Positions 46,259 to 64,000 are shown, counted from the stretch's first letter. The stretch: DNA of 64,000 nucleotides from Eubacteriales bacterium (GCA_045605175.1 JAZUPL010000095.1:5509-69508), one strand, 5' to 3'. The notes: generated by a model from the sequence alone, not told the origin. Numbers and translations: made by a program.

Positions 46259-47965
46259 ATGATAAAAAATACAGCAAAACGGTTGGTGGCACTTATTTTG
46301 GCTTTGATTGCCGTTTTTGTTTTGGTGTCGTGTGGTAAATGTGAGCACGATTATAAGGACGGGATTTGCACCCTGTGTGGTGAAGATGACCATGATTATG
46401 TGAAGCCCTGTAACCATACATACTCTCTCGGCGTTTGCACTTCTTGCGGCTCTTTTTGCAAGCACAGTTTTGCTAACGGTGCGTGTGCAATCTGTGGTTT
46501 TGTCTGCACACACAGTTATGCTAACGGTGCGTGCATAACCTGCGGTATATCTTGCACTCACAATTACGTTGATAGCGTTTGTACTATTTGCGGTATTGAC
46601 TGCGCGCATATATACAACGAGGGAATTTGCGGGAATTGCGGTGCAGAGGACCCTGATTATATACCTGCCGACGGCGGTGAATCTCTTTATAATGAAATCG
46701 TTGAGAAATATAAATATCTCGTTCTCTACAAGTATATGAACGAGGAACTCCCCCAAAAGGGTGACAACGCTCCCTTTTACATTGACGCACTTTACGAGGT
46801 CGTTGGCCAGTTTGACCCCACCAAGAACCTCGGATATGCTTTCAAGGATATTGACGGCGACGGGTATGTCGAACTCTTTTTAACCGAGAATTCAAATCGC
46901 ATATATGCTATGTTTACCATTCTTGACAAGTCGCCTAATCTCGTTTCAACCTTCCAGCAAGGAATGGGTTATCTTGGCCCCTCTGGAACGGTTTTCTTCA
47001 ACTCTAAGAAATTCGATTTAGAAGGTGGGCAGATCTACCTCGGAAACCATATAACTCGCCTTGTCAAGGGAGAACTTGTTGGCATAGCATACGGTTGGGA
47101 GGATTCTGACGAGGATTATGGAACGCAGAATGACGAGGTTTACTTTATAGTAACCGAAGACGGTACAAAAAATGTGCTTTCTTATGAAGAATATAAAGAG
47201 TTCCGCAGTGCTTATCAATATTTCTGGGAATACCCGACTCGACTGACAAAACTTAACCATTTGCAGTTTAAGTCTGCTCTTACCGACGTCAATTTGACCG
47301 ATATAGTTGCAGATTTTTCCACCTACGAGGCTATCATCAAGACCTTTGCCCTTATGCATTCCGAGGTGGCGGGCGGTAAATACGTCAGAAGCAAATGGGT
47401 GGGCGGCGAATACGATAACGGAATGGTATTTGAAAGTTATGAGGATTTCGTTATTTACAACAAACTGCTTTCCGCCTGCGTTCTCGTTCAGAATAACCAG
47501 AGTGCCAAATTCGGCTATGCCAGAGCAGATATTAACGGTGACGGAGTTGAAGAACTCATTCTTCTTGAAAGCAAGTATCACGTTCTTGCGATTTTTACCG
47601 AAGTTGACGGCAAGGTAGAACTTGTTGATTCCTATACCGATACAAGGTCGGCGTTTATTGACGGAGAGGGTAATATCCACGTTTGCAAAAAGACGGTGCC
47701 CGGCGGTAGCGAGGATTATGAATACTTCGTTTACGAAATAGAGGGCGGAAAAGCGGTTGCCAAGATAGCAATTGCTCAAAAGACCAATTATGACGGCACA
47801 CAGACTTTTTATTACAGGATAAACGGAACGACTTATGAGGAAATAGAGAAGTCGGAATTTGACGAACTATATACTCAATACGCCGGTGATATAGCAGAGG
47901 AGTCCTTCAGTTCTTATACCAAAAATAAGTCAGGACTCACCTTCGTTTTGGCAACTGCCGATTGA
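46259..47965 (+). CDS. Lipoprotein with an N-terminal Cys/His mini-repeat array and DxDGDG calcium-loop-like motifs
   Basis: Lipobox LVSC|G. Six C-x-H-x-[YF]-x2-G-x-C-x2-CG units. Later come DIDGDGYVELF and DINGDGVEELILL (FG-GAP/EF-hand-like). Confidence 0.8.
   Translation: MIKNTAKRLVALILALIAVFVLVSCGKCEHDYKDGICTLCGEDDHDYVKPCNHTYSLGVCTSCGSFCKHSFANGACAICGFVCTHSYANGACITCGISCTHNYVDSVCTICGIDCAHIYNEGICGNCGAEDPDYIPADGGESLYNEIVEKYKYLVLYKYMNEELPQKGDNAPFYIDALYEVVGQFDPTKNLGYAFKDIDGDGYVELFLTENSNRIYAMFTILDKSPNLVSTFQQGMGYLGPSGTVFFNSKKFDLEGGQIYLGNHITRLVKGELVGIAYGWEDSDEDYGTQNDEVYFIVTEDGTKNVLSYEEYKEFRSAYQYFWEYPTRLTKLNHLQFKSALTDVNLTDIVADFSTYEAIIKTFALMHSEVAGGKYVRSKWVGGEYDNGMVFESYEDFVIYNKLLSACVLVQNNQSAKFGYARADINGDGVEELILLESKYHVLAIFTEVDGKVELVDSYTDTRSAFIDGEGNIHVCKKTVPGGSEDYEYFVYEIEGGKAVAKIAIAQKTNYDGTQTFYYRINGTTYEEIEKSEFDELYTQYAGDIAEESFSSYTKNKSGLTFVLATAD
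46340..46660 (+). repeat. Six tandem coding repeats of about 48 nt (16 aa, Cys3His)
   Basis: CEHDYKDGICTLCG / CNHTYSLGVCTSCG / CKHSFANGACAICG / CTHSYANGACITCG / CTHNYVDSVCTICG / CAHIYNEGICGNCG. Adjacent units are also similar at DNA level (gctaacggtgcgtg occurs twice). Confidence 0.85.
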
Positions 47966-48090: not shown

Positions 48091-51000
48091 ATGAGCAAGA
48101 AAAAGATTATTACTATCGCGTCGATAATCGTTGCGGCGGCGATTTTGCTTACCGTGGCGGTGATTATAGCGGTGGTCGCCTTCAAAGACGGAAATGACGT
48201 ACCGGATACCCCCGAATATACGGGCGATTGGTCGGAATGTGGTGTTTATTACAGCACCGGAGGCAAGCCCTGCGAGTTGACGCTTAACAAGGGTGGCTCT
48301 TTCACTCTCGTCTATGACACAGAGGCGGCGTCGGGAAATTATTTTCTTACAGATTCCACATTGACGCTTGATTTTAGCGTAGATGGTGTTGACAACCTTA
48401 TTGCAAAATATGAGAGCAACGTAATAACCATGACCTATAAGGGTGCTTCTATGCGTATGCTCAAAAAGGTGAATTATACCGTTCGGTTTGAAACCGACGG
48501 AGCCGAAGAGATACCACCCATAACGGTTATGAACGGAAAAACCGTCACTAAGCCCTCCGACCCCACCAAGGAAAATTATCTTTTCGTGGGTTGGTATAGT
48601 GATAGCGAGTACACGAAGCCCTTTACCTTTTCCTCCGATGTTATAACCTCGGATATAACCCTATATGCAAGGTGGGTAGAGGCGAGAGAAGAGAGCGAAT
48701 ACACTATTCTGTTTGATATAGGATACGACGGTGCGGAGGAACTTGAACCGAGGACAACCCTGGGTGGCAGGCTTTTCGAATTAGGTGAACTTGAGAGGGA
48801 TAACTTCGAGTTTGGCGGTTGGTGGATAAGCACGGAGGGAGATAGGACGAAACTCTCTTACAAATGGACCGAGGATACGGTATTTACCCGTGACACAACC
48901 CTCTTTGCCATATGGCGTGAAAAGGGGGATACAAAACTTGAATATCCTTCCTTGACTGCCAATAATAACGGTGTTTTCTGGAGTGCCGTTTCGGGCGCAC
49001 GCTCATACGATGTGACCTTGCTTGACGAAAGCGGAACGGTTGTTTTTTCAAGAAGTGTTAGCACCGGACGCGTTGACATTCCTTTTTCGGATTATGCCCC
49101 CGGAATATATCGCATCAGTGTCGTAGCCAATGCAAATACAGGGACACAGGATAATTCCGAATCGCACTATGTTTTCGTCAATAAAGGACTTGACAAGGTG
49201 GGTGGTCTTTTCGTATCCGGAGGCTCAACTCTTGTTTTTAGCGGAGTTGAAAATGCGGAAAAATATCTAATAACCGTGGTATGCGGAAACGAAGAGCATT
49301 GTCATATCGATTTTGATAACGGGGAGTCTAAAACCTTCAGTTTTGCAAACTGCCCGATGGCTAAAGACGGAATAAAATTCGTTGTAAAAGCGGTTGCAGA
49401 GGGCTTCCTTACTTCGGTGTCCGACGAATTCGTTTTCAAAAGAGAACTTGCTTCGGTTGACGGCTTAAATTGGAATGAACAGACGGGAATTGTAGGTTGG
49501 AATGCTGTTGAAAATGCCGAAACTTATATAGTTTCTCTTTCCTGCACAAACCCTCTACATAATCATTCAACATTTAATAAAGTCACGCAAACCGAGCTTG
49601 ATATTAAAGAGTGTTCCTTTGATGAAAGTGGAATAACAATAAGCGTATATCCTGTTGCAGAGGGGTACAATTCGCCCGAGCCTACCGAAATAAAAATAGA
49701 AAAATCTCACCTTAAAACTCCCGATGGGATTACGGTGGTTGGGACTGTGGTCGGCTGGACTGCCGATACGAATGCAAGCAAATATGAAATCTCGGTAAAC
49801 GGGACAATTTACGAGGCAAACTCAAATAGTTTTGACCTTTCGAATGTTTTGACCTTTAACGAGGGTGACCTTTACGAAATAAAACTTCGCGCAATAGGTG
49901 AGGCAAACTCGCTCTGGTCGAATCCCGTAATATGCTATTATTATGCTCTGGGAGGAGAACTTGAGTATAAAAACGGTATGCTCTCTTGGAATCAGGTTAT
50001 CGGTGCCGACTTCTACGAATTGCAGATAAACGACAAGGAGATAAAGGAAATTCGGGGAGCAAACTATGCGAATATCGATTTTGACAGGGCGGGGGAGAAT
50101 AGGATAAAACTTCGCTTTGCGTGTGGTGAGTATCGCTCGGATTGGGTTTCTCTTTCTGTCGAGGCGTATCCTGTTATTTTTGACACTCTCGGCGGCAGTG
50201 CTGTTGCCGTGCAGTATAAAGCCGTAGGGGATGAGGTTTCACTCCCTAATTCTACGAAAATCGGATATAACTTTATCAGTTGGTATAACGTACCGGGAGG
50301 CCCAAGCGTAAACGGCAAGGAGATAGTAGGCAAGGTAATTAAGATAACAGGTGCTACTACTCTTTATGCTCATTATCGCCCCGAAAAATATGAAATAACG
50401 TATAATTACGGTATCGGTGGAACAGGTCTTGGAGTAAAAGACGTCGTTGAATATGAAAGAGATTATACTCTTGAGATTCCCACCGCCTTCGATATAACCG
50501 TTTCCTTTGGTGGTTGGTTTAGCGCCCCCTATGGACGAGGAACTCAATATACCGACGGCTCGGGAAAAAGCCTTAACCCCTGGACAAGTGCCGAGGGAAA
50601 AGAGGTTTATGCTTTCTGGATAGATGAAACGCTTGTTTTTTCTCCCGTCAAGGTTGGCGGAAAGGACGCCTATTCTGTTTCGGCAGGCCCGAAAATCTCT
50701 CTTGTTACCGAGGTGACTATTCCTTCGTATCATAACGGACTTCCCGTGGCTATGATTGAGGGCAATGCCTTTTCGGGTAGTAAGACTCTCAAAAAGGTAA
50801 ATATCCCATCGTCGGTAGAGGTCATATCAAATCTTGATCCGTTTTCGAATTGCGATTCACTAACCGAGATAAATATATATATGGTTGAGGGCTTCTCCTC
50901 TTCACGCTATAAATCCGAGGACGGAGTTCTTTTTGAAAATGCGTCCGACGGTGCAGTGCTTCTTTGTATGCCCGACGGCAGAGAGGGAGGATATATAATT

Positions 51001-54000
51001 CCCGACTGGGCTTCGGTAATAGGAGAGGGTGCATTTGCGGATTCTTCTATTGACTCGGTTATGATTTCAGACGGCGTTGTTAAGATAGCAAGCGACGCCT
51101 TCAAAAACTGTGATAATCTTCTCTCGGTAAACTTCGAGGTGCCAAAAGCGGAAGAGAGCAAACAACTTGTTATAGGAAAAAGAGCCTTTGCAGGTTGCTC
51201 GGCACTTCGCTCGGTTGTTCTCCCTGCACGTTTAGAGTCCATTGAACTGTCGAAGTATTATATAGGTGCAGAAGGCAAATTTACCGTAAGCCCTGATTAT
51301 GCCTTTGTGGACTGTCTTTCACTTGAATCAATAGGCGTTGCAGAAGGCTCTTCCTCATACAGCGTCGTTGACGGAATGATATACTCTTATGATAAGAGGC
51401 AAATTCTCTATTGCCCGCCCGCAAAAGGTGGTGAGATTTCTATTTCGCAAGGCACCCAGTCAATAGCCGCCGGTGCTTTCATCGACTGCGTAGATATTAC
51501 GGGAATTTTCATTCCAAACACCGTTACTTATATTGGCGAATATGCTTTCTACGGGCTTGATTTGACAAAGGTCACCTTTGGTGGAAAGGGATTTAGTTCT
51601 GTCACCGTAGGTAACAATTCCTTTGCAGAGTGCAAAAGGCTCCAAGAGGTTGTTGTCGAAGCGGGAAGCCAGATTTCGGTTATAGGCGAGAGGGCGTTTT
51701 CGGGTTGTAAGGGTCTTTTGAACTTTACAATTTCTTCGTCTGTTACTTCGATAAGGGACAATGCCTTTGAAAACTGTATAAATCTCGGCACAGTAACATT
51801 CGACGGTGGGAAAAAGCCACTTGAATTTGGTAGTAGCGTATTTTATAACTGTACTGCACTTACTAAGGTAAAGATTCCTGCAAACGTTTCGGTAATACCC
51901 GGAATATTTAACGGTTGTTCCTCTCTTCACGATATTGAGATTGATGAGGCAAACTCATACTTTGCAAGCCTTGGCGGTATTGTGTTCAACAAGGATATGA
52001 CCGAGATAGTTTACTATCCACAGGGCAGGGGAGGGACTTATTCCATTCCCGAAACGGTTACCGTTATTGCACCCGGAGTCTTTTATGGAAACAAATCTAT
52101 TGAGCAACTTATTATTCCCAATACCGTTTCCTATATAGGCGAGGGAGCATTTAAGAATACAAAAATAGGCAAAATTTTATTCGCAGGCGATACTTTTGCA
52201 GATGAACTTGTTATCGGCAGGTCGGCATTCGAGGGAGCCTATTTTGAGGGCTATGATTTTGCCTTGCCTTCGCATACCAAGCATATAGAGGATTACGCCT
52301 TTTCGGGTATTTTCTATAAAAAAATCGTCTTAAACGAAGGTCTTGAAAGCATAGGCAACTACGCCTTTTATTACCCCAGCAACGATAACGGTGAGGTTCT
52401 CGTTATTCCGTCAAGCGTTGTTTCCATAGGAGAATACTGCTTCTCCGGTGAGAGCGATAATTATTCCTATTTCGTTGCACATCGCTTTGTAAATGTGAGA
52501 TTTACAGAGGAAAATTCAAAACTAATCAAAATATCCGACTATGCGTTTTATAAGAATACAAGGCTTACCTCGCTAATACTTCCCGATACGGTGAGGATTA
52601 TTGGAAACTATGCCTTTTACGAGTGTGCAGGTCTTACCGAAATATCCCTCTCGGAGTCGCTTGAAAGCATAGGTGCTTTCGCCTTTGCGGCGTCGGCAAA
52701 TACCTATAAGGTGCCGATAAGCACCCTGACTCTTCCTAAGCAACTTACTTCAATAGGTGCTCGTGCATTTGAGAATTGTCAACTGCTTACCGAGGTTATT
52801 TTCTTGGCAGATGCCAACTCGCCCGACCTTGTTGTTGGCTCGTCATATCAAAGAAGATATGAGAGTGACGGGGTTGAAATGTTTGCAATAGAGCGTGGCG
52901 GTGTCTTTGCATCCTGCACAAGACTTCTTAAGGTCGAACTTTCACCAAACATAGTAACACTTAGTGATAGCTGCTTCCAAAATTCGGGAGATACGGGATT
53001 TGAGGTTATCGTTCCTGATAATTCAAGGCTCGCAACCATAGGTGCGTACTGCTTCTATAAGTCGAGGCTTGTGAGTTTTAAGATTCCCGCAAGTGTACGC
53101 AACCTTGAGCCGATAGAGGAGTTTGGAACGCTTTATAATCGCCTTGGAATAGGCGAGTATGCCTTTGCGGCGTCGGCAGGTAAACTCACCGAAATAGTTT
53201 TCTTAAAAGACTCAAATGCTTATGCACTGACTATTGGTTACGGAGCCTTTGAGAATCAGTCTAATCTTACGTCGATAGAACTTCCCGCAAGGCTTTCGCA
53301 ATACAAAGGTGCAAACGGAGAGGTGATAGCACCTCTTGCAAATGGAGCACTTGTATTTTATGGAGCAAAATCCCTCTCGACAATTACCGCCGAGGAGGGC
53401 TGCGCGTATGTAGTGGACGGTGGCGTTCTTTATACCGCGGATATGAAGGAATTAGTCTTTTGCCCTGTTTCTTATAGTGGCGAGATTTACGTTCCTGCTT
53501 CGGTAACTAAGATACACGACTACGCCCTTTGTGGTTGTACGGGGGTTTCTGCCGTTACATTTATTGGCAAGAGTGGACTTACCCGAATTGGCAACTATGC
53601 CTTTTTCGGTTGCTCGGCTATTAAAAAACTTGAGATTCCGGGTAATGTTATTTCGCTTGGCGAAGGGGCGCTTTGCCATGCTACCTCTCTTGAGAGTTTG
53701 ACATTGCCGAAAATTCTTAAAAACTTTGATATATCGGTGCTTGACGGTTGCTCGGCACTGAAAAACATTCTCGTTGAAGGAGGAAACTCTGCTTTCTCCT
53801 CGGATAGTGGCGTTTTATATAATAGCGACCAAACCGTGCTTATTCTTTATCCCGCAGGGCGTACCGATAAGCAATATACCGTGAAAGACAGCGTCCTTTC
53901 AATAGGAAAGAGAGCCTTCTATGGCAATTCTGCTATCGAGCAGGTTATCCTCCCTGTCGGGCTGCGTGAGATAAACGCGTCGGCTTTTGAAAAATGTTCT

Positions 54001-56394
54001 GCTCTGGAAAGCATAGTAATTCCTTACAGCGTAGAGATTATAGGCGAAAACGCATTTGCCTTTACCTTTGGACTTGAAAATTTGAGTTTTGCTAAGGGTG
54101 GAGTCACAAAACTTGTTATAGCCGACGGAGCCTTCCGTGAATCTGGGGTTTCCTATCTTGAACTTCCCTCTCGCATTTCTTCCATAGGGCAGGAGGCGTT
54201 TGTTGGCTCGAAACTTTCCTCGCTCTCATTTGAGAATAGCGATTTCTCCTGTCTTGAAGAAATAGGAAGTTATGCTTTCTCTAATACTCTGCTCGTTAAT
54301 GTGCAACTGCCAAGCGGAGTGTTAACTGTTGGTGAGGGGGCGTTCTCTGAAACTGCAAAACTCGATAAGGTCATCTTTGGCGAGGGGCTTGTGGAGATTG
54401 GAGCCGAGGCGTTTGAAAACTCTTCCCTTAAGGAGATTTATTTGCCGGCAAGTCTTAGGGTTCTTGGACATTCTTCGTTCCGCGGTTGTAAATATCTTGT
54501 AAGCGTTTCCTTTGCCCAAGGCTCACAACTCGGGGCGATAGAGGAGGGAACCTTCTCTGGTTGTACTTCTCTTGAGAGAATAACCGTACCCACATTTGTT
54601 AAGGAAATAGGTGGAGAAAAGGAAAACGGAGCCTTCTATAACTGCGTGAAACTTCAATTCGTTGATTTTGAGAGCAACGATAACTGCATAACAATAGGTG
54701 ATTATGCCTTTTACGGATGCGAGGCACTCTCTTCCTTTGAGATTCCTATGTCGGTAGGAACGCTTGGAAATTACGCATTTGCAAAATGCGCATCTCTTTT
54801 GGAAATTGTTATCAATAGGGCAACCGTCCAACTTGGACAAGGTCTTTTTGAGGATTGTACTTCGCTTAAAGAGGTTGAACTTAATACCGGAGCAACAGGT
54901 CTTTCCGAGGATATGTTTAAGAACTGCGTTAGCCTTACATATCTCGCTATTCCTGCTTCGATTTCGGAGATTTCGGACGGATGCTTTATCGGCTCTTCTA
55001 TTGAGAGATTTGATACAGCAAAGGAGAATAAAAACCTCGTTTCGGTTAGCGGTATTCTATACAACGCTTCGAAAACCGCAATAGTTGCTTTCCCACCAAA
55101 ACTCAATATAAAGACTCTCGTTATCCCGAAAGAAGTCGCACAGATTAAGAGCAACAACTTCAAGGGCTGTACGAGTATCAAGGAGGTTATATTCGAAGAG
55201 GGTGGAAGTATTCCTCTTTCTATCGATAGTCATGCTTTTGAAGGTTGCTATGAGATAAGAAAAGTCCAACTTCCGCAAAGGCTTGTTTCGATAGGCGGTT
55301 ATGCCTTCAGGGATTGTTCTGCACTAACCTCTGTAACCATTCCGAAAAACGTAGTTAGTATTGGAGATTATGCATTTAGCGGCTGCTCTAAACTCTACGA
55401 GGTATATAACGAATCTGCCATAGAGGATATAGGCAAAAAAGGCTCGCTCAACTATATAAATAACAACTATTATGTCAACGCAAAGGTGAATATCTATACA
55501 CCCACCGAGGGTGCGTCGGTGCTCGTGCGTGAGGGAGAGTTTATCTTTACTACCGTAAATGGTGTAAAAAGACTTATCGGGTACGAGGGCGATAGCAGTG
55601 TTATAGTTCTTCCTGAGGGAAGTTATGCCCTTGCCGATTATCTTTTCTATAAAAACTGTTCTATCACTAAGGTGGTTATACCCGCAACGGTCAAGGTGTC
55701 CGGTAGTTTTTTGTTTAGCGGTTGCGAAAGTCTTGAATGCATTTTTGTTTCGGGGGCGGATATACCGACCTCCTGGTCAGATAACTGGAACAACGGAAAG
55801 GCGGTATTCGGGGGATATACCGGAGAGGATATTACCTATACCTTTGTAACAGACGGCGAGCAGGTTAATCCCATCACAACCTCTGATAAAATAAAACTGC
55901 CCACGGCGGTTTATGAAAATCACATATTTATGGGTTGGTATGACAATTCCGAGTTTTCGGGCAACCCATACTATGGGGACTATTACAGTTCTCTCAAAAC
56001 CGAACTTTATGCGAGATTCATAACCGAAGAAGAGTATATTGAAGAATACCTGAGAGGTCAGTCTATGGAATATGCTTATAGCATAGAAAGTGGCGAAACC
56101 TATGAGGTTGAAATCAAAAACAAGGGTGCTCAAAACTACTTTGTGCTTACCGTGCTTGACGGTGAGATGTGGAATATTTCTACTCCATCGGGAATGGGAT
56201 TCCATAAGATCTGGATTTACGATGCAAACGGAAAGGAACTTTATTCCTATTTTACGGGACCTTCAAGCGACCTAAGTCACGATATTAACCACGATTATAC
56301 TTTTGAAGAGGGTGGAACCTACTATATTGGAGTAGGGTATAAGTATTCCACCAAAGAGTCGGGAACCTTTGAGGTTACCTTTACAAAAATTTGA
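48091..56394 (+). CDS. Giant (2767 aa) membrane-anchored surface protein: Flg_new repeats, FN3-like modules, ~1700-aa BspA-type LRR array, C-terminal PPC-like domain
   Basis: Single uninterrupted ORF with an N-terminal signal-anchor helix. Flg_new motifs (YLFVGWYSD...ITLYARW) lie at about 48472-48915, 50167-50619 and 55831-56019. Five W-x2-V-x-[GN]-A-x2-Y modules and LRR_5 units (IPxSVxxIGxxAFxxCxxL) follow. The C-terminus has a PPC-like pattern (GGTYYIGVGY...GTFEVTF). No LPXTG motif. Confidence 0.9.
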   Translation: MSKKKIITIASIIVAAAILLTVAVIIAVVAFKDGNDVPDTPEYTGDWSECGVYYSTGGKPCELTLNKGGSFTLVYDTEAASGNYFLTDSTLTLDFSVDGVDNLIAKYESNVITMTYKGASMRMLKKVNYTVRFETDGAEEIPPITVMNGKTVTKPSDPTKENYLFVGWYSDSEYTKPFTFSSDVITSDITLYARWVEAREESEYTILFDIGYDGAEELEPRTTLGGRLFELGELERDNFEFGGWWISTEGDRTKLSYKWTEDTVFTRDTTLFAIWREKGDTKLEYPSLTANNNGVFWSAVSGARSYDVTLLDESGTVVFSRSVSTGRVDIPFSDYAPGIYRISVVANANTGTQDNSESHYVFVNKGLDKVGGLFVSGGSTLVFSGVENAEKYLITVVCGNEEHCHIDFDNGESKTFSFANCPMAKDGIKFVVKAVAEGFLTSVSDEFVFKRELASVDGLNWNEQTGIVGWNAVENAETYIVSLSCTNPLHNHSTFNKVTQTELDIKECSFDESGITISVYPVAEGYNSPEPTEIKIEKSHLKTPDGITVVGTVVGWTADTNASKYEISVNGTIYEANSNSFDLSNVLTFNEGDLYEIKLRAIGEANSLWSNPVICYYYALGGELEYKNGMLSWNQVIGADFYELQINDKEIKEIRGANYANIDFDRAGENRIKLRFACGEYRSDWVSLSVEAYPVIFDTLGGSAVAVQYKAVGDEVSLPNSTKIGYNFISWYNVPGGPSVNGKEIVGKVIKITGATTLYAHYRPEKYEITYNYGIGGTGLGVKDVVEYERDYTLEIPTAFDITVSFGGWFSAPYGRGTQYTDGSGKSLNPWTSAEGKEVYAFWIDETLVFSPVKVGGKDAYSVSAGPKISLVTEVTIPSYHNGLPVAMIEGNAFSGSKTLKKVNIPSSVEVISNLDPFSNCDSLTEINIYMVEGFSSSRYKSEDGVLFENASDGAVLLCMPDGREGGYIIPDWASVIGEGAFADSSIDSVMISDGVVKIASDAFKNCDNLLSVNFEVPKAEESKQLVIGKRAFAGCSALRSVVLPARLESIELSKYYIGAEGKFTVSPDYAFVDCLSLESIGVAEGSSSYSVVDGMIYSYDKRQILYCPPAKGGEISISQGTQSIAAGAFIDCVDITGIFIPNTVTYIGEYAFYGLDLTKVTFGGKGFSSVTVGNNSFAECKRLQEVVVEAGSQISVIGERAFSGCKGLLNFTISSSVTSIRDNAFENCINLGTVTFDGGKKPLEFGSSVFYNCTALTKVKIPANVSVIPGIFNGCSSLHDIEIDEANSYFASLGGIVFNKDMTEIVYYPQGRGGTYSIPETVTVIAPGVFYGNKSIEQLIIPNTVSYIGEGAFKNTKIGKILFAGDTFADELVIGRSAFEGAYFEGYDFALPSHTKHIEDYAFSGIFYKKIVLNEGLESIGNYAFYYPSNDNGEVLVIPSSVVSIGEYCFSGESDNYSYFVAHRFVNVRFTEENSKLIKISDYAFYKNTRLTSLILPDTVRIIGNYAFYECAGLTEISLSESLESIGAFAFAASANTYKVPISTLTLPKQLTSIGARAFENCQLLTEVIFLADANSPDLVVGSSYQRRYESDGVEMFAIERGGVFASCTRLLKVELSPNIVTLSDSCFQNSGDTGFEVIVPDNSRLATIGAYCFYKSRLVSFKIPASVRNLEPIEEFGTLYNRLGIGEYAFAASAGKLTEIVFLKDSNAYALTIGYGAFENQSNLTSIELPARLSQYKGANGEVIAPLANGALVFYGAKSLSTITAEEGCAYVVDGGVLYTADMKELVFCPVSYSGEIYVPASVTKIHDYALCGCTGVSAVTFIGKSGLTRIGNYAFFGCSAIKKLEIPGNVISLGEGALCHATSLESLTLPKILKNFDISVLDGCSALKNILVEGGNSAFSSDSGVLYNSDQTVLILYPAGRTDKQYTVKDSVLSIGKRAFYGNSAIEQVILPVGLREINASAFEKCSALESIVIPYSVEIIGENAFAFTFGLENLSFAKGGVTKLVIADGAFRESGVSYLELPSRISSIGQEAFVGSKLSSLSFENSDFSCLEEIGSYAFSNTLLVNVQLPSGVLTVGEGAFSETAKLDKVIFGEGLVEIGAEAFENSSLKEIYLPASLRVLGHSSFRGCKYLVSVSFAQGSQLGAIEEGTFSGCTSLERITVPTFVKEIGGEKENGAFYNCVKLQFVDFESNDNCITIGDYAFYGCEALSSFEIPMSVGTLGNYAFAKCASLLEIVINRATVQLGQGLFEDCTSLKEVELNTGATGLSEDMFKNCVSLTYLAIPASISEISDGCFIGSSIERFDTAKENKNLVSVSGILYNASKTAIVAFPPKLNIKTLVIPKEVAQIKSNNFKGCTSIKEVIFEEGGSIPLSIDSHAFEGCYEIRKVQLPQRLVSIGGYAFRDCSALTSVTIPKNVVSIGDYAFSGCSKLYEVYNESAIEDIGKKGSLNYINNNYYVNAKVNIYTPTEGASVLVREGEFIFTTVNGVKRLIGYEGDSSVIVLPEGSYALADYLFYKNCSITKVVIPATVKVSGSFLFSGCESLECIFVSGADIPTSWSDNWNNGKAVFGGYTGEDITYTFVTDGEQVNPITTSDKIKLPTAVYENHIFMGWYDNSEFSGNPYYGDYYSSLKTELYARFITEEEYIEEYLRGQSMEYAYSIESGETYEVEIKNKGAQNYFVLTVLDGEMWNISTPSGMGFHKIWIYDANGKELYSYFTGPSSDLSHDINHDYTFEEGGTYYIGVGYKYSTKESGTFEVTFTKI
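48937..50166 (+). repeat. Five tandem FN3-like modules (about 80 aa each, coding)
   Basis: Recurrent signatures: VFWSAVSGARSYDV, VFSGVENAEKYLI, VGWNAVENAETYIV, VGWTADTNASKYEI, LSWNQVIGADFYEL. Boundaries are approximate. Confidence 0.6.
50713..55760 (+). repeat. BspA-type leucine-rich repeat (LRR_5) array inside the giant gene
   Basis: Dozens of degenerate units of about 23-25 aa with I/V-P-x-S/T-V-x-x-I-G-x-x-A-F-x-x-C. Exact short DNA recurrences occur, e.g. gcctttgcggcgtcggca at 52681 and 53161. Boundaries are approximate. Confidence 0.8.
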
Positions 56395-56606
56395 TAGGGA
56401 AGAATATTCCCTAACCTTAAAAAAGGGCTACCGTGTTTGTCTTGCCGACATTTCACGGTAGTCCGAGAGGTTAAATGATGTCAAAGCGCCCCTTCCAAGC
56501 ATTATTTGGGGCGCTGCGACAGATTTAACTTAATACATTAAAAAGCAATTCACTTAACTTAAATTTGAAAATTCATTGGAAAAACCAATTTTTAAGGAAT
56601 ATATAG

Positions 56607-57635
56607 ATGAACATTAAAGAAATCTTTGGCAAGCATTATGAGCGACTTTTGGTCGAGGGAATACTTAAATCGACTTTAATCGGTGCTACCATAGCCCTTT
56701 TAATAAATACCGTATTTGCCTTTCTCTATTGGATGCTTTCTTTTGGAAGCAGTTGGCTTGGTGCGGTAATAGGTATTCCTTTGGGAATAGCCGTAGGAAT
56801 ACTGTTGTATTTTTTGAGATACAGGCTAACCGAGCAGTCGGTCGCTCGCAGAATAGACAGATGCGGTCTTGATGAAAGAATGATAACGATGGTAGAACTT
56901 AGCGGTGACCCATCGAGCATAGCACAGATTCAGCGAGCAGATGCCAGGGACAGTTTACATGCTCTTTCGGAAAAAACGGTTAAAATTAGTATTTCCCCTT
57001 TTCTTATCGCTGTTGCGTCGGTGATTCTTGCCCTCTCTATCCTGTTCACTACTCTTGCACTTTTGGCAAGTGGTGGGAAGATACCGTATGGCAAAGATAT
57101 GCTTCTTCAAGGGGCGGACGGAAAATTTGAGGTCGTCTATATGACAGACGGTGGCGGAAAAATCCGTGGAGAGAGCAGTCAGAGTGTTGGCTTTGGCGAG
57201 TCCACCGATTTTGTACGTGCGGTGGCAGATGACGGATGGATGTTTGTATTCTGGGATGACGGAGAGAAAAGCCCGGAGCGAAGGGAAGAGGGCGTTTCGT
57301 CAAACATGGTTATAAAAGCCGTATTCAAAAAAATAGACAATAGCGACTCGGACGAGGATGATAGCGATTCAGCAGATGATCTTCCCTCTGGAAGCGTAAA
57401 CGAGGAATCGGGAGGCGGAGATTCCGACCAGACCGGAGGAGAAAATATTAAAAACGACGGTGAGGGCAACGGCGGTGGAAAATGGCAGGATAGAAACCAG
57501 TTTATCGACGGTGCCACGTATTATAGAGATTACTTGGAATTTTATTATCAGTACGCGATGGGAGTTTTCGATTCACAAACCGATATTCCCCCCGAAATAA
57601 TAGAATTTTTTGAAACCTACTTCAGCGGAATTTAA
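56607..57635 (+). CDS. Membrane protein: three TM helices, one Flg_new-like domain, Asp/Ser/Gly-rich acidic tract and Tyr-rich C-terminus
   Basis: 342 aa. Cytoplasmic loop VARRIDRCGLDERMITMVELSGD between TM2 and TM3. Extracytoplasmic DDGWMFVFWDDGE, then DNSDSDEDDSDSADD...GGGDSDQTGGEN. Confidence 0.8.
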   Translation: MNIKEIFGKHYERLLVEGILKSTLIGATIALLINTVFAFLYWMLSFGSSWLGAVIGIPLGIAVGILLYFLRYRLTEQSVARRIDRCGLDERMITMVELSGDPSSIAQIQRADARDSLHALSEKTVKISISPFLIAVASVILALSILFTTLALLASGGKIPYGKDMLLQGADGKFEVVYMTDGGGKIRGESSQSVGFGESTDFVRAVADDGWMFVFWDDGEKSPERREEGVSSNMVIKAVFKKIDNSDSDEDDSDSADDLPSGSVNEESGGGDSDQTGGENIKNDGEGNGGGKWQDRNQFIDGATYYRDYLEFYYQYAMGVFDSQTDIPPEIIEFFETYFSGI

Positions 57636-57679
57636 TCCGAAAAATGCACTTTGAGCATTAAAAAGGCAGGAATAATATA

Positions 57680-59581
57680 ATGAATTGGTTAGCACCCATA
57701 GGCTTTTTGGGTTTGTTGAGTTTGCTTGTGCTTATCTTGATTTACATAATCAAGCCTAATTATCAGAACAAGCGAATATCATCAACCTATATATGGCGGT
57801 TGAGTTTTAAATATAAAAAGCAAAGAATTCCTATAAGTAAAATACAGAATCTTCTCATATTTTTGTGTCAGGTTGTCATACTGGCACTTCTTGGAACTCT
57901 ACTTGCAGGCCCGGTTGTAGAAACCTTTAGCGGCGGCGATGAGAATGAGGCGGTTATAATAGTAGATGCCTCGGCAGGAATGAGGATTCAGGACTCGGGA
58001 AAGACGAGATTTGAGCGTGCCGTTACCGAAGCGAGAAAAAAAGCACAGAGCACCTTTGAAAAAGGCTCTGCGGTAAGTTTTATTATAGCGGCAGATTCTG
58101 CGGAATACCTCTTCTTAAGGGTAGGCCCTGAGGGCAAAGACGAGGCGCTTGAAAAGATTGATGCTCTCTATCTTGAGGCAAAGGAAAAATGCTCTTTTGC
58201 GTCAATTGATGTGAGCGACTCTGTAACCTTGGCAGAATCGGTCCTTGAGCAAAATTCCGAGGCAGAGGTTTATTTTTACACGGCTACTGATTACACCTAT
58301 CCCAATGGAGTAAATGTTGTGAAAATAGCCTCCAAAAACGAATGGAACGCAGCCATACTTGGCTGTAATGCAGAACTTGATAATGATAACCATTATCGAA
58401 TAAAGATAGATGCAGCGTGTTACGGAAAAACCGATTTTATAACCGTATATTGCAAGATTTACGGTGTAAACGGTGATTCGAGTAATGTCGTTTCTCTTGA
58501 AAAGGGCGAGTTTTTTGATCCGTCAGCAGAAGAGAAGGAAATTGTTTTCACCTCCGACGATATATCGTCAGGCGCAATTTATTCCTATGATTATATTGAA
58601 ACGTATGTCGGCGTTAGGGATTCCTTTGCAGATGATAATTCCTTCTTCCTTTACGGTGGTACAAAAAGAGTTATAAAAATTCAGTATGCGAGTTCCTCTC
58701 CTAACAACTTTTTCGAGAGTGTAATAAGAACGCTTAGGCAAAGCACTAAAGAGATATGGGACGTTCAGTTTACTCTGCTTAAAGCAGACGAGCCCTTTGC
58801 GACAGAGGGATTTGATATTTATATTTTCGAGCATAAAATGCCACAGACTATCCCGACAGACGGAGTAGTTCTGCTTGTTGATCCGACTTCGGCACCCGTA
58901 GATTCGGGATTGCAGATAGGCTCTTCATATATAATAGATAGCAGTTCTGTACTTTCAGGTGGTAAGGAGCACGAACTTACCAAGTATATCACACCTAATA
59001 GAATCACCATAGCAAAATATAACGACATCATATTGAGCGAGGGCTATGAGGAGTTGATGCTTTATAACGGCAGACCTGTTATGCTTGTTAAGGATACCCC
59101 TAAGGCAAAGGTTTTGGTTTGGGCATTTGATTTGAATTATTCAAACCTTATAGCCCTGCCCGATTTCCCCACGCTTGTTTACAATATGTTTAACCACTTT
59201 GTTTTTGAAACCTTCTCTGGATATTCTTTTGAGGTTGGAGAGACTATTGAACTTAACGGAAGAGGCGAAACACTTAGCGTCAGCGGCGACCAATACGAAT
59301 ATACCTTTGAGGACTGCAAGGGAGAGTTTACACCAACACGCCCAGGCACCTATACGGTAATTCAAGGTTCGGCAGGCGGAGAAGAACTTTCCGAGGAGAG
59401 GTTCTTTGTCGCTATTCCTGCAGGCGAGAGCGACACCGAGAAAACCGTGGATTCCTTACCATTTGTAAAGGTAACAGACACGCGCAGCAGGGAATATGAG
59501 GATCTTTTGCTTTATTTTGCAATAGCACTTTGTGTGTTTATGTTTGCAGAATGGATTCTCGAAATCAAGAAAAATTATTGA
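57680..59581 (+). CDS. BatA-like protein: N-terminal double-TM anchor, degenerate vWA domain, C-terminal TM helix
   Basis: N-terminus MNWLAPIGFLGLLSLLVLILIYIIKP plus a second helix (pattern of the Bat 'aerotolerance' N-terminal double-TM domain). VIIVDASAGM has a MIDAS-like DxSxS with the last Ser lost. C-terminal helix LLLYFAIALCVFMFAEWIL. Confidence 0.8.
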   Translation: MNWLAPIGFLGLLSLLVLILIYIIKPNYQNKRISSTYIWRLSFKYKKQRIPISKIQNLLIFLCQVVILALLGTLLAGPVVETFSGGDENEAVIIVDASAGMRIQDSGKTRFERAVTEARKKAQSTFEKGSAVSFIIAADSAEYLFLRVGPEGKDEALEKIDALYLEAKEKCSFASIDVSDSVTLAESVLEQNSEAEVYFYTATDYTYPNGVNVVKIASKNEWNAAILGCNAELDNDNHYRIKIDAACYGKTDFITVYCKIYGVNGDSSNVVSLEKGEFFDPSAEEKEIVFTSDDISSGAIYSYDYIETYVGVRDSFADDNSFFLYGGTKRVIKIQYASSSPNNFFESVIRTLRQSTKEIWDVQFTLLKADEPFATEGFDIYIFEHKMPQTIPTDGVVLLVDPTSAPVDSGLQIGSSYIIDSSSVLSGGKEHELTKYITPNRITIAKYNDIILSEGYEELMLYNGRPVMLVKDTPKAKVLVWAFDLNYSNLIALPDFPTLVYNMFNHFVFETFSGYSFEVGETIELNGRGETLSVSGDQYEYTFEDCKGEFTPTRPGTYTVIQGSAGGEELSEERFFVAIPAGESDTEKTVDSLPFVKVTDTRSREYEDLLLYFAIALCVFMFAEWILEIKKNY

Positions 59582-59591
59582 GGGGATAGAT

Positions 59592-62300
59592 ATGTCAAAT
59601 TTTAGAATAACTTATAACTACCCCTGGCTGCTTTTGCTTATAATTCCTGCTGTTCTTCTTGCGCTGATTCCTTATTTTCGCTTGGAAAAAAGATATCGCT
59701 TCACAAGAAACAGGGTTATTTCAATAACGCTTCATATAATTTCTATGGTGCTTGTCATTAACCTGCTTGCGGGGCTTGGATTCTCTTACGAAGTGCCTAA
59801 CGAAGAGAACGAGGTCATACTTCTTGTTGACGTTTCAGACAGTACGGAAAAGGAGAGCGATAGCAAGGACGACTTTGTGAGGTCGGTTATTGATATATGT
59901 GGCGAGGGCTGTAAAATAGGAGTTGTAAAATTCGGACACGGCGTCAACTATGCCGTAAAACTTACCGACGATAAGGAAAGTGCTTTTGAAAACTACCTTA
60001 CCTCGGAAAATCCGAGTGGCTCGGCAACGGCGCTTGCAGATGCTCTGAAATTTACTGCATCCTTGTTCACCAACAAAAAGACTTCTAAGATAGTTGTCGT
60101 TTCGGACGGGCTTGAAACCGACGGAGATGCGCTCGTTTCTCTCAATGAGATACTTTCCGAGGGAACGGTTGTTGATTCGGCTATTATAGAAAAGGAGCAG
60201 GTGGAGGATATCCAGATAGTTTCTGCCGTGGTTGAAAACTCGGATATCGTGATAGGCGAAAATTTCGTCATTGATCTGACTGTAAAGAGCAACTCCACAG
60301 AAAGCGAGGAGGCTGCCGTCCTTCGCCTTTACGACAACGGAAAACTTTACGGAGAAACTATTGTAGGAATAAAAAACGGTGATAACGAGATACCTGTATC
60401 TCTTAGTTTGTCCGAGAGGGGAATGCACGAACTTTCTTTCGAGTTGATAACCGATTATGAGTTGTTTGGCGAGCCTCTTGCAGATTCGGTCGGACAGAAT
60501 AACCGTTATTACACTTATGTAAATCTTGAAACCTTTGAAAACATCCTTCTTATAGAAAGATATGAAAACGAGGCGGAAGAACTAAAAAATCTTTTAGCCC
60601 AAACCAAAAATCTGACCGATATAAGCGTACAAGAGGATATTTTAGATTTTCCAAAAAGCATTTCGGATATGGCAAAATACGAACAGATAGTGCTTGTCAA
60701 TATCGCTTATTCGGATATGCCTTTGGGATTTGAAGCACTTTTGAATAGGTATGTATATGAACTTGGAGGAGGTCTTTTCACGGTTGGAGGAAGAAATGAT
60801 TATGACCAAAACGGCAACCTTATTCCCCATGCGTATAACAGGAAGGACCTTGAAAATTCCGAGTACTTAAAATATATGCTTCCTGTAAATGCGGAGGACT
60901 ATACTCCTCCTATTGCGGTGATGCTCGTTGTTGATACCTCGCTTTCAATGAAAAGCACAGGCAAACTCACCGCGGCCATAGACGGAGCCAAGGCGTGCCT
61001 TGATGCACTTCACGACAGAGATTTTTGTGGAATTGTATCCTTTAGCAGTGCTTCGAGCGAAAGGCTTAGCGTCCTACCCGTGTCGCAAAGAGATACTATC
61101 TCTGAGGCTATTAAAAGGTTGGAAGACGATGCCGGTGGCGGAACAATATTCTCTGATGCCATTATGAAGGCGGGGCGCGCTCTCTCGGTAATAAATAATG
61201 TTGAGAGAAAGCATATTATTTTGATAACCGACGGTCTGCCCGGCGATTCCTTCGATGACTATAAGGGGTATATTGATGATAACGTCGAGGACGGAATAAC
61301 CATGTCGGTGCTTACTTTGGGCATTGACGATGCCAAAAAAGAGGCCGAGATGCAAAAAACGGCAACTGCCGCAGGTGGAAAGTTCTATAACGTCAATAGC
61401 ATAGGCTCTATTTCAAACACGATGTATAAAGATCTTACAGAGGAAGCAATACCGGAGATTGAGTACGGAGAGGATTTCAACCTTAAAATTAAGGACAGAA
61501 GCCCTATTTTATCGGGGATAATCCCCCAGGCAATTCCTCCCCTTTGTGGATATTACGGCACGGTTGCCAAGAAGGACGCCACCGTTCCTCTTATGGGAGA
61601 GTACGTTCCTATATACGCCACCCACAAATACGGTAAAGGCACGGTTGGAAGTTTTATGTGCGACCTCGGTGGTGAATGGTCCTCGACCTTTATGGCAAAT
61701 CCTGTCGGCAAGGCGTTGATAGAGAACATCGTAGAGAGTATATTCCCCTCCCAAGATGTCCGTGCGGACGATATAAAATTCGAGATGAAGTCGGATAACT
61801 ATTTGCACTGGATTAATATTCACACAGGGCTACAAGATGAACTTGTTGAAGTTAGGGTGGCGCCCGTGAGTTCTCATCTTCAGCATTTGCACGGCGAGAT
61901 AGAGGTTAATAGCGCAGAGAGTAACAGGAGATTTACCTTCTCGATAATCGAGCCGGGACTTTATGAGATAAAGATAATTCTGTCCGACAAAGAGGGAAAT
62001 GTAAAGTCCGATATTACGACATATAAAGTATTTTCTTATTCCGAAGAATACGATAGTTTTGCGGACGAACCCAATAGGGGCGAGGCTCTTATGTCCGAAC
62101 TTGCCGATGCGAGTGGAGGTAGGCAGATTCTCGATCCCGCCAACGTTTTTGCAAGTCTTTCCGAAACATTAGAGTGTAGGTATGATCCAAGAGTAATATT
62201 GATAATTACCGCAATAGTTCTGTTCCTTCTTGATATTGCGGTTCGCAAATTTAAGTTCAAGTGGCTCCACGAAATCATAGGGGAGCAAAAAAATAATTAG
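59592..62300 (+). CDS. Double-vWA membrane protein (N-terminal double-TM anchor, vWA, GATase1-like middle domain, second vWA, C-terminal TM)
   Basis: ATG 59592 is preceded by GAGGGG, 10 nt after the previous stop. Intact MIDAS motifs LLVDVSDS and LVVDTSLSM, with GGGT and ITDG. C-terminal helix VILIITAIVLFLLDIAV. Confidence 0.85.
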   Translation: MSNFRITYNYPWLLLLIIPAVLLALIPYFRLEKRYRFTRNRVISITLHIISMVLVINLLAGLGFSYEVPNEENEVILLVDVSDSTEKESDSKDDFVRSVIDICGEGCKIGVVKFGHGVNYAVKLTDDKESAFENYLTSENPSGSATALADALKFTASLFTNKKTSKIVVVSDGLETDGDALVSLNEILSEGTVVDSAIIEKEQVEDIQIVSAVVENSDIVIGENFVIDLTVKSNSTESEEAAVLRLYDNGKLYGETIVGIKNGDNEIPVSLSLSERGMHELSFELITDYELFGEPLADSVGQNNRYYTYVNLETFENILLIERYENEAEELKNLLAQTKNLTDISVQEDILDFPKSISDMAKYEQIVLVNIAYSDMPLGFEALLNRYVYELGGGLFTVGGRNDYDQNGNLIPHAYNRKDLENSEYLKYMLPVNAEDYTPPIAVMLVVDTSLSMKSTGKLTAAIDGAKACLDALHDRDFCGIVSFSSASSERLSVLPVSQRDTISEAIKRLEDDAGGGTIFSDAIMKAGRALSVINNVERKHIILITDGLPGDSFDDYKGYIDDNVEDGITMSVLTLGIDDAKKEAEMQKTATAAGGKFYNVNSIGSISNTMYKDLTEEAIPEIEYGEDFNLKIKDRSPILSGIIPQAIPPLCGYYGTVAKKDATVPLMGEYVPIYATHKYGKGTVGSFMCDLGGEWSSTFMANPVGKALIENIVESIFPSQDVRADDIKFEMKSDNYLHWINIHTGLQDELVEVRVAPVSSHLQHLHGEIEVNSAESNRRFTFSIIEPGLYEIKIILSDKEGNVKSDITTYKVFSYSEEYDSFADEPNRGEALMSELADASGGRQILDPANVFASLSETLECRYDPRVILIITAIVLFLLDIAVRKFKFKWLHEIIGEQKNN

Positions 62301-62384: not shown

Positions 62385-64000
62385 ATGAAGATAATTCGTT
62401 TACTTACACTTTGTTTAATAAGTTTAAGCCTTTTGCTTTTTACTGCTTGCTCTACCGAGGGTGAACTTTCAGAGCCAAGCGGAGTGACGGTTGATTATGA
62501 AATCCTGACTCTTAAATGGGGCGAGGTCGCCGGAGCGAAAACCTACACGGTGCGTATTGAAACCGAGGGACAGGCTCCCATGGAAACAGAAATAAGCAAA
62601 AACTATTACTCGCTTGAAACTCTTTCGCCGGGATTATACGACATATCTGTCAGGGCAAATGGCAATAAGGTCGTCGATTCACGCTTCTCGGAGTCGATAA
62701 GTTTTGAAAGAGAAGTCGAATGCGGTCTTGAATTTAATATGATTGCAGGCGGATATGAGGTGTCAGGCAAGGGGCAGGCAACGGGTAAAGTGGAAATACC
62801 TGCAACTTATAGGAAAAAGGATGTAATAGCCATTGGGGAAAATGCTTTCTTTAACGCAAGCGATATTAGCGAAATAAAACTTCCCGAAAGCATAAAATCC
62901 ATAGGAGCATTTGCCTTTGCCGGTTGTTCCTATCTTGAAAAAATAAATATTCCCAAGGGCCTTAATTATCTTGGGGAGAGTGCCTTTTCGGGTTGTCGCT
63001 CGGTGGGAGGAGAACTTTCTCTGCCTGACAGCCTTACAGAAATTCCAAAGGGGGCGTTTGCGTACTGTTCTTCGCTTGAGTCGGTTCGATTTGGAGAAAA
63101 ACTTTCATATATCGGAGATAACGCATTCACCGACTGCTCGCATATTAAAGCCCTTGCATTCCCCGAAACCTTGAGGGAGATTGGCGGCTTTGCGTTTGCT
63201 GCGTGTGCCGACGTACCCGAAATAAACTTTAGAGAGGGACTTTTAGAGATAGGAGAATTTGCTTTTTCCAAGGCACTTTCTCTTACTTCTGTATCGCTTC
63301 CTGATAGCCTTAAATATATAGGAAAGGGTGCTTTTTATCTTAACTCGGCTCTTGAGTCTGTGACTCTTGGCTCTGGGGTGGAAGAACTTGGTGATTCGGC
63401 ATTTCTTGACACGGCGATTTATAAAAACTCACCGACGAATGAAATATATGTCGGAAATTGGTTTATAGGTCTTTTGGACGCCTCAGCCCCCACGATAAAT
63501 ATAATCGAAGGAACGGTGGGAATAGCGAACAGTGCATTATATGCCAATCAAAACCTGACGGCGGTGGAACTGCCGAACAGTGTCAAGTACATAGGTGTTC
63601 ACGCCTTTGCGGCAAGCAATATAGTCAGCATAGTGACGGGAAGCGGTGTCAAAAGGATAGCGGATGAGGCATTTTTGTACTGTGAAAAACTGATAGACGT
63701 AGCACTTGGCTCTTATGACTTCACCGAGCAGGAAATCAAGGATAGTTCGCTTTTGAGCATAGGTAATTACGCTTTTATGAATTGCCCGCAGTTGCAGAGA
63801 ATAACTATTCCCTCGTCGGTTATAGATATTGGAGCCTACGCCTTTCGCAATACGGATATCTTCAAAAGTTCTATGACGGGGGCTGTATATGCCGATAATT
63901 GGATAGTCGATTTTAACGATACGATAACCGAAGAACTTGTGGTGGATAAGGGTACGGTTGGAATTGCTCGTTACGCATTTTATAACTGTCAGCAACTCAA
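62385..64000 (+). CDS. Lipoprotein with one FN3-like module and a BspA-type LRR array (3' end beyond the window)
   Basis: Not in the ORF track because it has no stop in the window. I translated 538 codons from ATG 62385 without meeting a stop. AAAGGAG lies upstream. Signal peptide plus FTAC|S lipobox. LKWGEVAGAKTYTV module, then IPxxLxxIGxxAFxxC units. Confidence 0.8.
   Translation, partial: MKIIRLLTLCLISLSLLLFTACSTEGELSEPSGVTVDYEILTLKWGEVAGAKTYTVRIETEGQAPMETEISKNYYSLETLSPGLYDISVRANGNKVVDSRFSESISFEREVECGLEFNMIAGGYEVSGKGQATGKVEIPATYRKKDVIAIGENAFFNASDISEIKLPESIKSIGAFAFAGCSYLEKINIPKGLNYLGESAFSGCRSVGGELSLPDSLTEIPKGAFAYCSSLESVRFGEKLSYIGDNAFTDCSHIKALAFPETLREIGGFAFAACADVPEINFREGLLEIGEFAFSKALSLTSVSLPDSLKYIGKGAFYLNSALESVTLGSGVEELGDSAFLDTAIYKNSPTNEIYVGNWFIGLLDASAPTINIIEGTVGIANSALYANQNLTAVELPNSVKYIGVHAFAASNIVSIVTGSGVKRIADEAFLYCEKLIDVALGSYDFTEQEIKDSSLLSIGNYAFMNCPQLQRITIPSSVIDIGAYAFRNTDIFKSSMTGAVYADNWIVDFNDTITEELVVDKGTVGIARYAFYNCQQL

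Follow-up and report, generated by a model that had tools for sequence, protein, structure and literature searches.

Loss of the MoxR and DUF58 genes from a conserved BatA/VWA surface-protein cluster in uncultured Clostridia

Bat proteins were originally proposed to serve aerotolerance; deletion of the bat genes left the oxidative-stress tolerance of Leptospira biflexa unchanged, and the literature on these proteins offers no settled function (PMC3557215). The Bat operon of the Bacteroides fragilis type encodes, downstream, the TPR protein BatC, BatD and the SH3/TPR protein BatE, and BB0173 of Borrelia has been shown experimentally to have three transmembrane (TM) helices and an outward-facing VWA domain (PMC5700661). 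In the NorQ/NorD system, a MoxR ATPase and a soluble VWA partner act on a membrane client, nitric oxide reductase, and Thermus thermophilus offers a natural client cluster without the norQD chaperone genes (PMC9976466, PMC13036017, PMC12067857). The bifidobacterial PFNA cluster (pkb2, fn3, aaa-atp, duf58, tgm) carries an MRP-type MoxR and a DUF58 protein beside a large adhesin, and its authors propose that MoxR aids adhesin folding or deployment (PMC8430577). Here we analyzed a locus of this kind in a 64,000-nucleotide (nt) stretch of DNA from an Eubacteriales bacterium (GCA_045605175.1, JAZUPL010000095.1:5509-69508). This 64-kb stretch is called the window, and all coordinates are based on it unless a related locus is named. 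On its + strand, a gene for a 342-amino-acid (aa) membrane protein, p342 (56607..57635), is followed by genes for a 633-aa BatA-like protein (57680..59581) and a 902-aa BatB-like double-VWA protein (59592..62300), and the MoxR and DUF58 genes are missing. An earlier note on this DNA had placed the two larger open reading frames (ORFs) exactly there and had read them as Bat-like proteins with neither a MoxR ATPase nor a DUF58 gene in cis. Our analysis confirms the observation and partly supports the reading: the window holds a conserved MoxR-DUF58-BatA/VWA surface-protein cluster in a derived form that has no ATPase.

The absence of the two genes in cis held up in a motif scan, in tblastn and in Pfam searches of the 64-kb window. 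MoxR-type Walker A and Walker B motifs (G.PG.GK[ST], DE[ILVM]NR) occur in no frame of the window, MoxR and DUF58 proteins taken from a sister locus had no tblastn match in it, and Pfam scans of the other large window ORFs found housekeeping genes only and neither MoxR nor DUF58. The place that moxR and DUF58 occupy in sister clusters is taken here by a junction spacer of 44 nt (57636..57679, +) with the ribosome-binding site (RBS) AAGGCAGGA. A remnant of either gene at this junction was ruled out, the spacer being just 44 nt long and blank in tblastn. One detail of the earlier description has to be changed: it gave an 8.3-kb leucine-rich repeat (LRR) gene as the upstream neighbor, and the actual neighbor is the p342 gene, which lies inside the interval then under discussion and went undescribed.

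A protein search retrieved 906 relatives, all of them metagenome sequences of uncultured Clostridia, Oscillospiraceae or Ruminococcaceae, and the best match among GTDB representative genomes was 71% identical. In a scan of species-representative genomes, 80 of 251 matches were kept as loci, every genome being a metagenome-assembled genome (MAG). Mapping by tblastn synteny revealed, in nearly all of these loci, a conserved order of giant BspA-LRR, p342, MoxR, DUF58, BatA-like, double-VWA, LRR lipoprotein and Big_3 genes. Relatives of about 69% identity (L001-L003) have the window's gene order, again without MoxR and DUF58, and those of about 52% identity (L004-L006) show the same order with MoxR and DUF58 exactly between p342 and the BatA-like gene. 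When the count was restricted to the 67 non-redundant loci with at least 2.3 kb of upstream DNA, moxR and DUF58 were both present in 56 and both absent from 10, and MoxR alone was missing in 1. The earlier note had reckoned with the chance that the pair always accompanies the homologues elsewhere; this is largely what we found, and yet the absence in the window stands. Because moxR and DUF58 adjoin BatA in 56 of the 67 loci and the gene order is shared, the window represents a derived state and no separate class of free-standing Bat proteins.

By comparing the loci in a neighbor-joining tree, we found that the MoxR-less ones (the window, L001, L008-L012 and L027) form one clade, sister to a MoxR-linked clade. 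L007 was excluded from the tree for its truncated BatA; its gene order and junction match the MoxR-less clade. The sister-clade MoxR (350-360 aa, gene of about 1.08 kb) scores 208 bits with AAA_3, also matches AAA_lid_2 and carries the Walker A motif GVPGVGKT and the Walker B motif DEINR. The sister-clade DUF58 protein has 299 aa and scores 106 bits (0.9-kb gene; L004:9105-10004); in complete clusters its DxSxS motif is intact, reading DCSAS at residues 88-92, and its sequence suggests a soluble partner of MoxR of the VWA type. In those clusters, the DUF58 stop codon overlaps the BatA start. The junction of the MoxR-less clade has one form in all nine loci, namely the p342 stop codon, a spacer of 30-50 nt with AAGG[TC]AGG and then the ATG of BatA. 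Since this junction is uniform across the clade and the MoxR-less loci form a single clade, the absence is a deletion and not an assembly artefact, and since it is common to nine species-level loci whose BatA-like proteins are just 60-73% identical, the loss is old. Therefore, we conclude that MoxR and DUF58 are absent through a real, old and precise deletion, and that an ancestor of the lineage almost certainly deleted exactly moxR and DUF58 from the cluster. That the pair was instead dropped by misassembly, or sits just outside the window on the same contig, is very improbable. About 20 kb of the 84.5-kb source contig do lie outside the window, but the same junction recurs in nine or more assemblies made independently in different studies, no MoxR or DUF58 is found in the 57 kb upstream of the genes, and the 10 kb downstream in syntenic relatives hold LRR and Big_3 genes only, with no MoxR or DUF58, which also makes unlikely a pair just past the window end, a case the earlier note had allowed for.

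Losses were also seen elsewhere among the related loci. L041 (9845-9965) has lost both genes, independently of the window clade; L081 (8992-9938) keeps DUF58 and is missing MoxR, and L024 (1-633) keeps MoxR and is missing DUF58, each by a separate loss.

A degenerate metal ion-dependent adhesion site (MIDAS) in the 633-aa protein had been hinted at as a companion of the missing ATPase, and this link did not hold. The variant DASAG is typical of the window clade, but the MoxR-less L012 has DASAS; moreover, G, N or D stands at the third MIDAS Ser in 12 of the 56 MoxR-linked loci, and L006 has ESGAG despite MoxR in cis. A degenerate MIDAS as a result of MoxR loss was therefore rejected, and DASAG is no signature of the loss.

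The Bat-like assignment of both proteins is well founded. In the 633-aa protein, residues 1-78 match BatA_N (PF07584) at 37.9 bits against a cut-off of 25.9. Profile searches for VWA succeeded clearly for the 902-aa protein, but for the 633-aa protein VWA_2 reached 22.2 bits, below the cut-off of 27. The motif there, DASAG at residues 96-100 (nt 57965-57979), has Gly in place of the third MIDAS Ser and belongs to a putative VWA domain of about residues 88-215. The VWA fold of this protein is supported by structural modeling and Foldseek. An AlphaFold2 model built with 91 homologues (predicted local distance difference test score, 85.6) shows a TM hairpin and a VWA-type α/β domain and, beyond them, β-sandwiches, a second α/β domain and a C-terminal helix. 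The order after the VWA domain is a β-sandwich, a class-I-GATase-like α/β domain, a second β-sandwich and the third TM helix, the GATase-like range (about residues 320-510) being read off the secondary-structure pattern of the model and not from an alignment. Foldseek gave as best PDB matches 3soz and 2gk3 (TM-score of 0.51 on the target) and a ThuA-like protein, all of which we take to have the class-I-GATase-like fold, and it also matched the VWA domains of CMG2 and TFIIH p44 and the β-sandwiches of glycosidases. By profile, no GATase1_like match was obtained in the 633-aa protein; NCBIfam names came out sub-threshold only, with TIGR02226 at 16.2 bits against a cut-off of 23.05, and a search for solved structures related by sequence returned none that was meaningful.

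The 902-aa protein starts with ATG, 7 nt behind GAGGGG, and an alternative GTG start at 59532 would extend it to 922 aa. In Pfam it matches VWA_2 at 95.7 bits over two stretches, VWA at 66.6 bits and VWA_CoxE at 46.1 bits. No BatA family of Pfam matches it, and its N-terminal module is homologous to residues 38-247 of the 633-aa protein (hhalign probability of 94.5%, E = 7e-8). The first VWA domain (residues 70-203), which contains the VWA_CoxE match together with a faint DUF58-like similarity, has the MIDAS motif DVSDS at residues 80-84 (nt 59829-59843), and the second (residues 442-609) has DTSLS at residues 448-452 (nt 60933-60947), so that these two motifs and the DASAG of the shorter protein are all present as first read. 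The GATase1-like domain claimed for the larger protein exists as a marginal match (GATase1_like, PF07090/DUF1355; 27.4 bits against a cut-off of 27) covering only positions 159-231 of the 247 in the profile. It lies after the second VWA domain, at residues 633-703 (nt 61488-61700), and not in the middle of the protein as had been thought; nor is such a domain confined to the larger protein, since the model and the Foldseek matches point to a class-I-GATase-like fold in the shorter one as well.

Charge and hydropathy predict that both proteins are tethered to the membrane at both ends. TM helices of the 633-aa protein fall at residues 6-24, 58-76 and 609-627 by hydropathy, and the loop at residues 25-57, with 9 K/R and 0 D/E, is predicted to be cytoplasmic. 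In the 902-aa protein, a TM hairpin at residues 13-60 encloses the basic loop EKRYRFTRNR (5 K/R), again predicted to be cytoplasmic, and a C-terminal TM helix occupies residues 868-886. A C-terminal TM helix in both proteins, as noted earlier, is normal for BatA-type proteins (BB0173, PMC5700661). The domain between TM2 and TM3 starts acidic and is predicted to be outside, with 532 residues in the 633-aa protein and 801 residues in the 902-aa protein, and the short C-terminal tail of both is predicted to be cytoplasmic. With this topology, the VWA/MIDAS, GATase-like and β-sandwich domains would be outside the membrane, and only the short basic loop and the short tail of either protein would face the cytoplasm. 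The predicted arrangement agrees with the one determined by experiment for BB0173 (PMC5700661).

The remaining genes of the cluster are intact, and purifying selection still acts on them. Within the MoxR-less clade, saturation has been reached at synonymous sites (pS 0.73-0.76), whereas nonsynonymous divergence (pN) is 0.20, compared with 0.23-0.26 in the MoxR-linked sister clade. Conservation region by region is equal in both clades; the identity of the BatA cytoplasmic loop, for example, is 0.75 versus 0.76. The BatA_N loop and the cytoplasmic loop motif of p342, RRxDRxGLxERxITMxEL, which is kept in the MoxR-less and MoxR-linked clades alike, are among the best-conserved parts, equally with or without an ATPase in cis. 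Relaxed selection after the loss was consequently rejected, as pN is no higher and both the regional conservation and the loop motif are unchanged. Distances to outgroups are higher in the MoxR-less clade (p-distances of 0.585 versus 0.528 for BatA and of 0.556 versus 0.512 for the double-VWA protein), which is a modest acceleration and not decay. A cluster that has lost its engine might also be a decaying remnant on its way to pseudogenes, an idea that agrees with the slightly greater outgroup divergence and with L007 (10001-11902; MAG JAZSHN01), in which codon 471 of the BatA-like gene is an in-frame TAA and whose genome carries a complete second cluster. This idea is largely refuted already and retains very little probability: despite the saturated synonymous sites, full-length p342, BatA and double-VWA ORFs are kept in 8 of the 9 species-level loci, the window included, pN does not exceed that of MoxR-linked clusters, and the 902-aa protein keeps DxSxS in each of its two MIDAS motifs in 9 of 9.

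How the membrane proteins could do without adjacent partners is best approached through a reading in several steps. The deletion of moxR and DUF58 put the BatA-like gene directly behind p342 via the short RBS-bearing spacer. The 633-aa and 902-aa proteins may form a metal-dependent extracytoplasmic scaffold, which would hold or organize either the LRR/Big_3 surface proteins encoded alongside them or the acidic linker of p342. In the cytoplasm, MoxR and DUF58 would act as a pair on the conserved loops that the membrane proteins expose there, and in the window lineage a paralogous complete cluster would supply this pair in trans. We give this statement as a whole, including the membrane half of a conserved cluster, the deletion, the scaffold and the supply in trans, a probability of about 0.55. 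Its last element, the supply in trans, is the reading we favor from the sequences at roughly even odds.

Several observations are in keeping with a supply in trans. Of seven related genomes with a MoxR-less cluster, two also carry a complete second cluster: MAG JAZSHN01 holds the MoxR-less L007 and the complete L021, and MAG SVTB01 holds the MoxR-less L009 and the complete L049. MAG CAAFEO01 has two complete clusters, so genomes with several copies exist. Measured across clades from one reference locus, identity is 81% for MoxR and 69% for DUF58, as against 42% for BatA, 43% for the double-VWA protein and 38% for p342; the evolutionary rate of MoxR is about half that of its membrane partners. 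Because MoxR and DUF58 are so strongly conserved across clades, these membrane proteins could plausibly make use of an ATPase pair encoded in another cluster. The partial losses, of MoxR only in L081 and of DUF58 only in L024, point to redundancy and hence speak for a supply in trans. Neither MoxR nor DUF58 of the sister clusters has a TM segment, so that they would be a soluble cytoplasmic pair able to reach the membrane proteins only via their short cytoplasmic segments.

Other considerations weigh against the multi-step reading. The second moxR-DUF58 was sought in related genomes, the genome of the window being covered by its 64 kb alone, and five of the seven representative genomes with a MoxR-less cluster have no second cluster among the 80 of 251 loci kept. 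The MAGs are incomplete and their bins possibly mixed, so co-binning is no proof of one genome, and the two clusters of SVTB01, L009 and L049, differ in GC content (0.47 versus 0.51). The two sister clades occur together in one MAG only, so they may be either paralogues or orthologues that belong to different groups of species. The basic loops might be conserved because of constraints on membrane insertion rather than for the docking of a cytoplasmic partner, and the putative link between the VWA and LRR proteins comes from conserved gene order.

The principal alternative, which we consider possible though doubtful, is that the translocated BatA-like and double-VWA proteins work without MoxR-DUF58 and that nothing replaces the pair; it would then be a dispensable accessory, such as an aid to assembly or quality control, that the lineage dropped. 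The VWA domains, predicted to be outside the membrane, would be out of reach for a cytoplasmic ATPase (compare BB0173, PMC5700661), the ancient loss has been stable and selection has not relaxed after it, and further losses have occurred, of both genes in L041 and of single genes in L081 and L024. The five of seven related genomes in which no second cluster is found among the loci kept (80 of 251) fit as well. Inactivation of moxR in Francisella reportedly left Bat protein levels unchanged (cited in PMC3557215), and nitric oxide reductase clusters without norQD set a precedent for clients lacking the MoxR/VWA chaperone (PMC12067857). On the other hand, moxR and DUF58 are by far the best-conserved genes of the cluster and are kept in 56 of 67 loci, which argues for their importance; two MoxR-less genomes do hold a complete second cluster, and the cytoplasm-facing segments are as conserved without an ATPase in cis as with it.

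The genes discussed above belong to a co-directional run on the + strand from 46.2 kb to the window end. Its first member, and likely the first gene of the conserved cluster, encodes a putative lipoprotein of 568 aa (46259..47965, +) with an N-terminal LVSC lipobox and FG-GAP matches below the Pfam cut-off; a homologue lies upstream of the giant LRR gene in L001, L007, L008, L010 and L012. The best sigma-70-like site of the region, at 46154-46182, was the one promoter-like site to emerge from a promoter/terminator consensus scan that gave nothing else informative. Next comes the giant surface protein with BspA-type LRRs (2767 aa; 48091..56394, +), which matches LRR_5 at 760 bits over 15 stretches and Flg_new three times. 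It has one N-terminal TM helix at residues 12-30, preceded by KKK and predicted to be a signal-anchor helix, and synteny of its gene extends to nearly all related loci.

Between the giant LRR gene and p342 lies a structured 212-nt intergenic region with three hairpins (56395..56606, +; minimum free energy, -72.2 kcal/mol; z = -8.1 versus shuffles). Strong GC-rich hairpins are found at the same place in every related locus, their position being kept without sequence homology, and Rfam gave no match for the spacer. The region is probably a terminator or a transcript-stabilizing element ahead of a p342 transcription unit. A palindrome, CATTGG-N5-CCAAT, at 56574-56589, just 5' of the p342 RBS, may be an operator; it is common to the window, L008, L009 and L011. 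The p342 protein is a conserved cluster member whose gene is syntenic in 64 loci and, where the cluster is complete, stands directly before moxR. With three TM helices, the protein is predicted to consist of a cytoplasmic loop, an extracytoplasmic InlB-B-repeat-like domain, an acidic D/E/S-rich linker and a C-terminal domain, of which the last 40 residues are highly conserved. Its Flg_new_2 match stays just under the cut-off in the window (22.3 bits) and passes it in L004 (25.2 bits).

On the other side, the downstream neighbor is an LRR lipoprotein, as the earlier note had it: a BspA-type protein from 62385 (62385..64000, +; cut by the window end) with the N-terminus MKIIRLLTLCLISLSLLLFTAC, the lipobox LFTAC and an LRR_5 match of 259.9 bits. 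In relatives, this lipoprotein has about 916-928 aa and is followed by a Big_3 lipoprotein of about 1050-1090 aa. The other large window ORFs are, by Pfam, ordinary chromosomal genes, namely pheST, uvrC, trmD, RNase R, rhamnose genes, trkAH, a copper ATPase, thioredoxin reductases and an ABC transporter. Across the whole window, Rfam returned nothing credible and tRNA genes were not found. Firmicutes usually carry a T-box leader upstream of pheS-pheT; the region of about 560 nt at that place (21410-21970) matched neither a T-box nor any other Rfam family, even at E <= 1. The ORFs at 130-1386 (418 aa) and 16100-17896 (598 aa), both on the + strand, had no Pfam match at E <= 1e-5.

The ATPase-less cluster is neither categorically new nor very surprising, and its value is that it tests the need for the ATPase module in cis. 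The clade is a natural experiment in which membrane VWA proteins have long been kept under selection without adjacent ATPase and DUF58 genes. Either clusters can share an ATPase pair or the extracytoplasmic proteins can do without it, and both outcomes constrain models of what MoxR does for Bat proteins; a practical limit is that all carriers are uncultured MAGs. In gut Clostridia the module is consistently set among giant BspA-type LRR, Big_3 and Flg_new proteins, a genomic setting that suggests the display of adhesins on the cell surface as its role, and not oxygen tolerance. A wider idea, which we offer only tentatively, is that the cluster is an undescribed modular apparatus of gut Clostridia in which giant BspA-type LRR adhesins are deployed by a cytoplasmic MoxR-DUF58 engine together with extracytoplasmic VWA scaffolds anchored at both ends. 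A single ATPase pair, evolving slowly, would then serve several fast-evolving paralogous scaffold/adhesin clusters, so that lineages could drop the ATPase genes harmlessly, and the window would be a natural example of a spoke without its hub.

Compared with the Bat and spirochaete clusters (Borrelia bb0170-bb0176 and Leptospira batABD), the 633-aa protein has the same BatA_N double-TM anchor and predicted C-terminal third TM helix, with a putative VWA/MIDAS domain after the anchor, and the ancestral Clostridia cluster likewise has MoxR and DUF58 directly upstream, the window itself being without both. Unlike the Bat operon, neither the window nor its relatives showed a TPR (BatC), BatD or SH3/TPR (BatE) protein in Pfam scans, the neighbors carrying LRR_5, Flg_new, Flg_new_2, Big_3 and weak FG-GAP domains only. 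The window proteins are also two to three times longer than BB0173 (341 aa), with added GATase-like and β-sandwich domains. The host is another difference, as the cluster belongs to a Clostridia lineage and is set among giant BspA-type LRR, Big_3 and Flg_new genes; an outer membrane and a periplasm are normally absent from Clostridia. In Planctomycetes, Verrucomicrobia and Bacteroidetes, proteins with BatA_N (TIGR02226, "two_anch") and GATase1_like (PF07090/DUF1355) domains follow MoxR-DUF58. Their domain grammar is alike by description, with a double-TM anchor, then a VWA domain and after it a class-I-GATase-like domain, which makes them a lead only; they differ in phylum and in the surrounding LRR genes, and TIGR02226 is sub-threshold for the 633-aa protein.

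Bifidobacteria are gut-dwelling and Gram-positive, and their PFNA cluster offers the nearest functional analogy in a Gram-positive gut bacterium, with MoxR and DUF58 next to a surface adhesin. It differs in having a kinase and a transglutaminase-like membrane protein and no BatA/VWA proteins, and its adhesin is of the FN3 type and not of the LRR type; the available portion of PMC8430577 describes no ATPase-less variant. The MoxR-DUF58 pair of the sister clusters follows the same logic as NorQ/NorD, since its DUF58 protein carries DCSAS. The client of NorQ/NorD is a metalloenzyme that needs iron insertion, whereas the Clostridia cluster encodes no metal-cofactor enzyme, and its candidate clients would be structural or adhesive membrane proteins.

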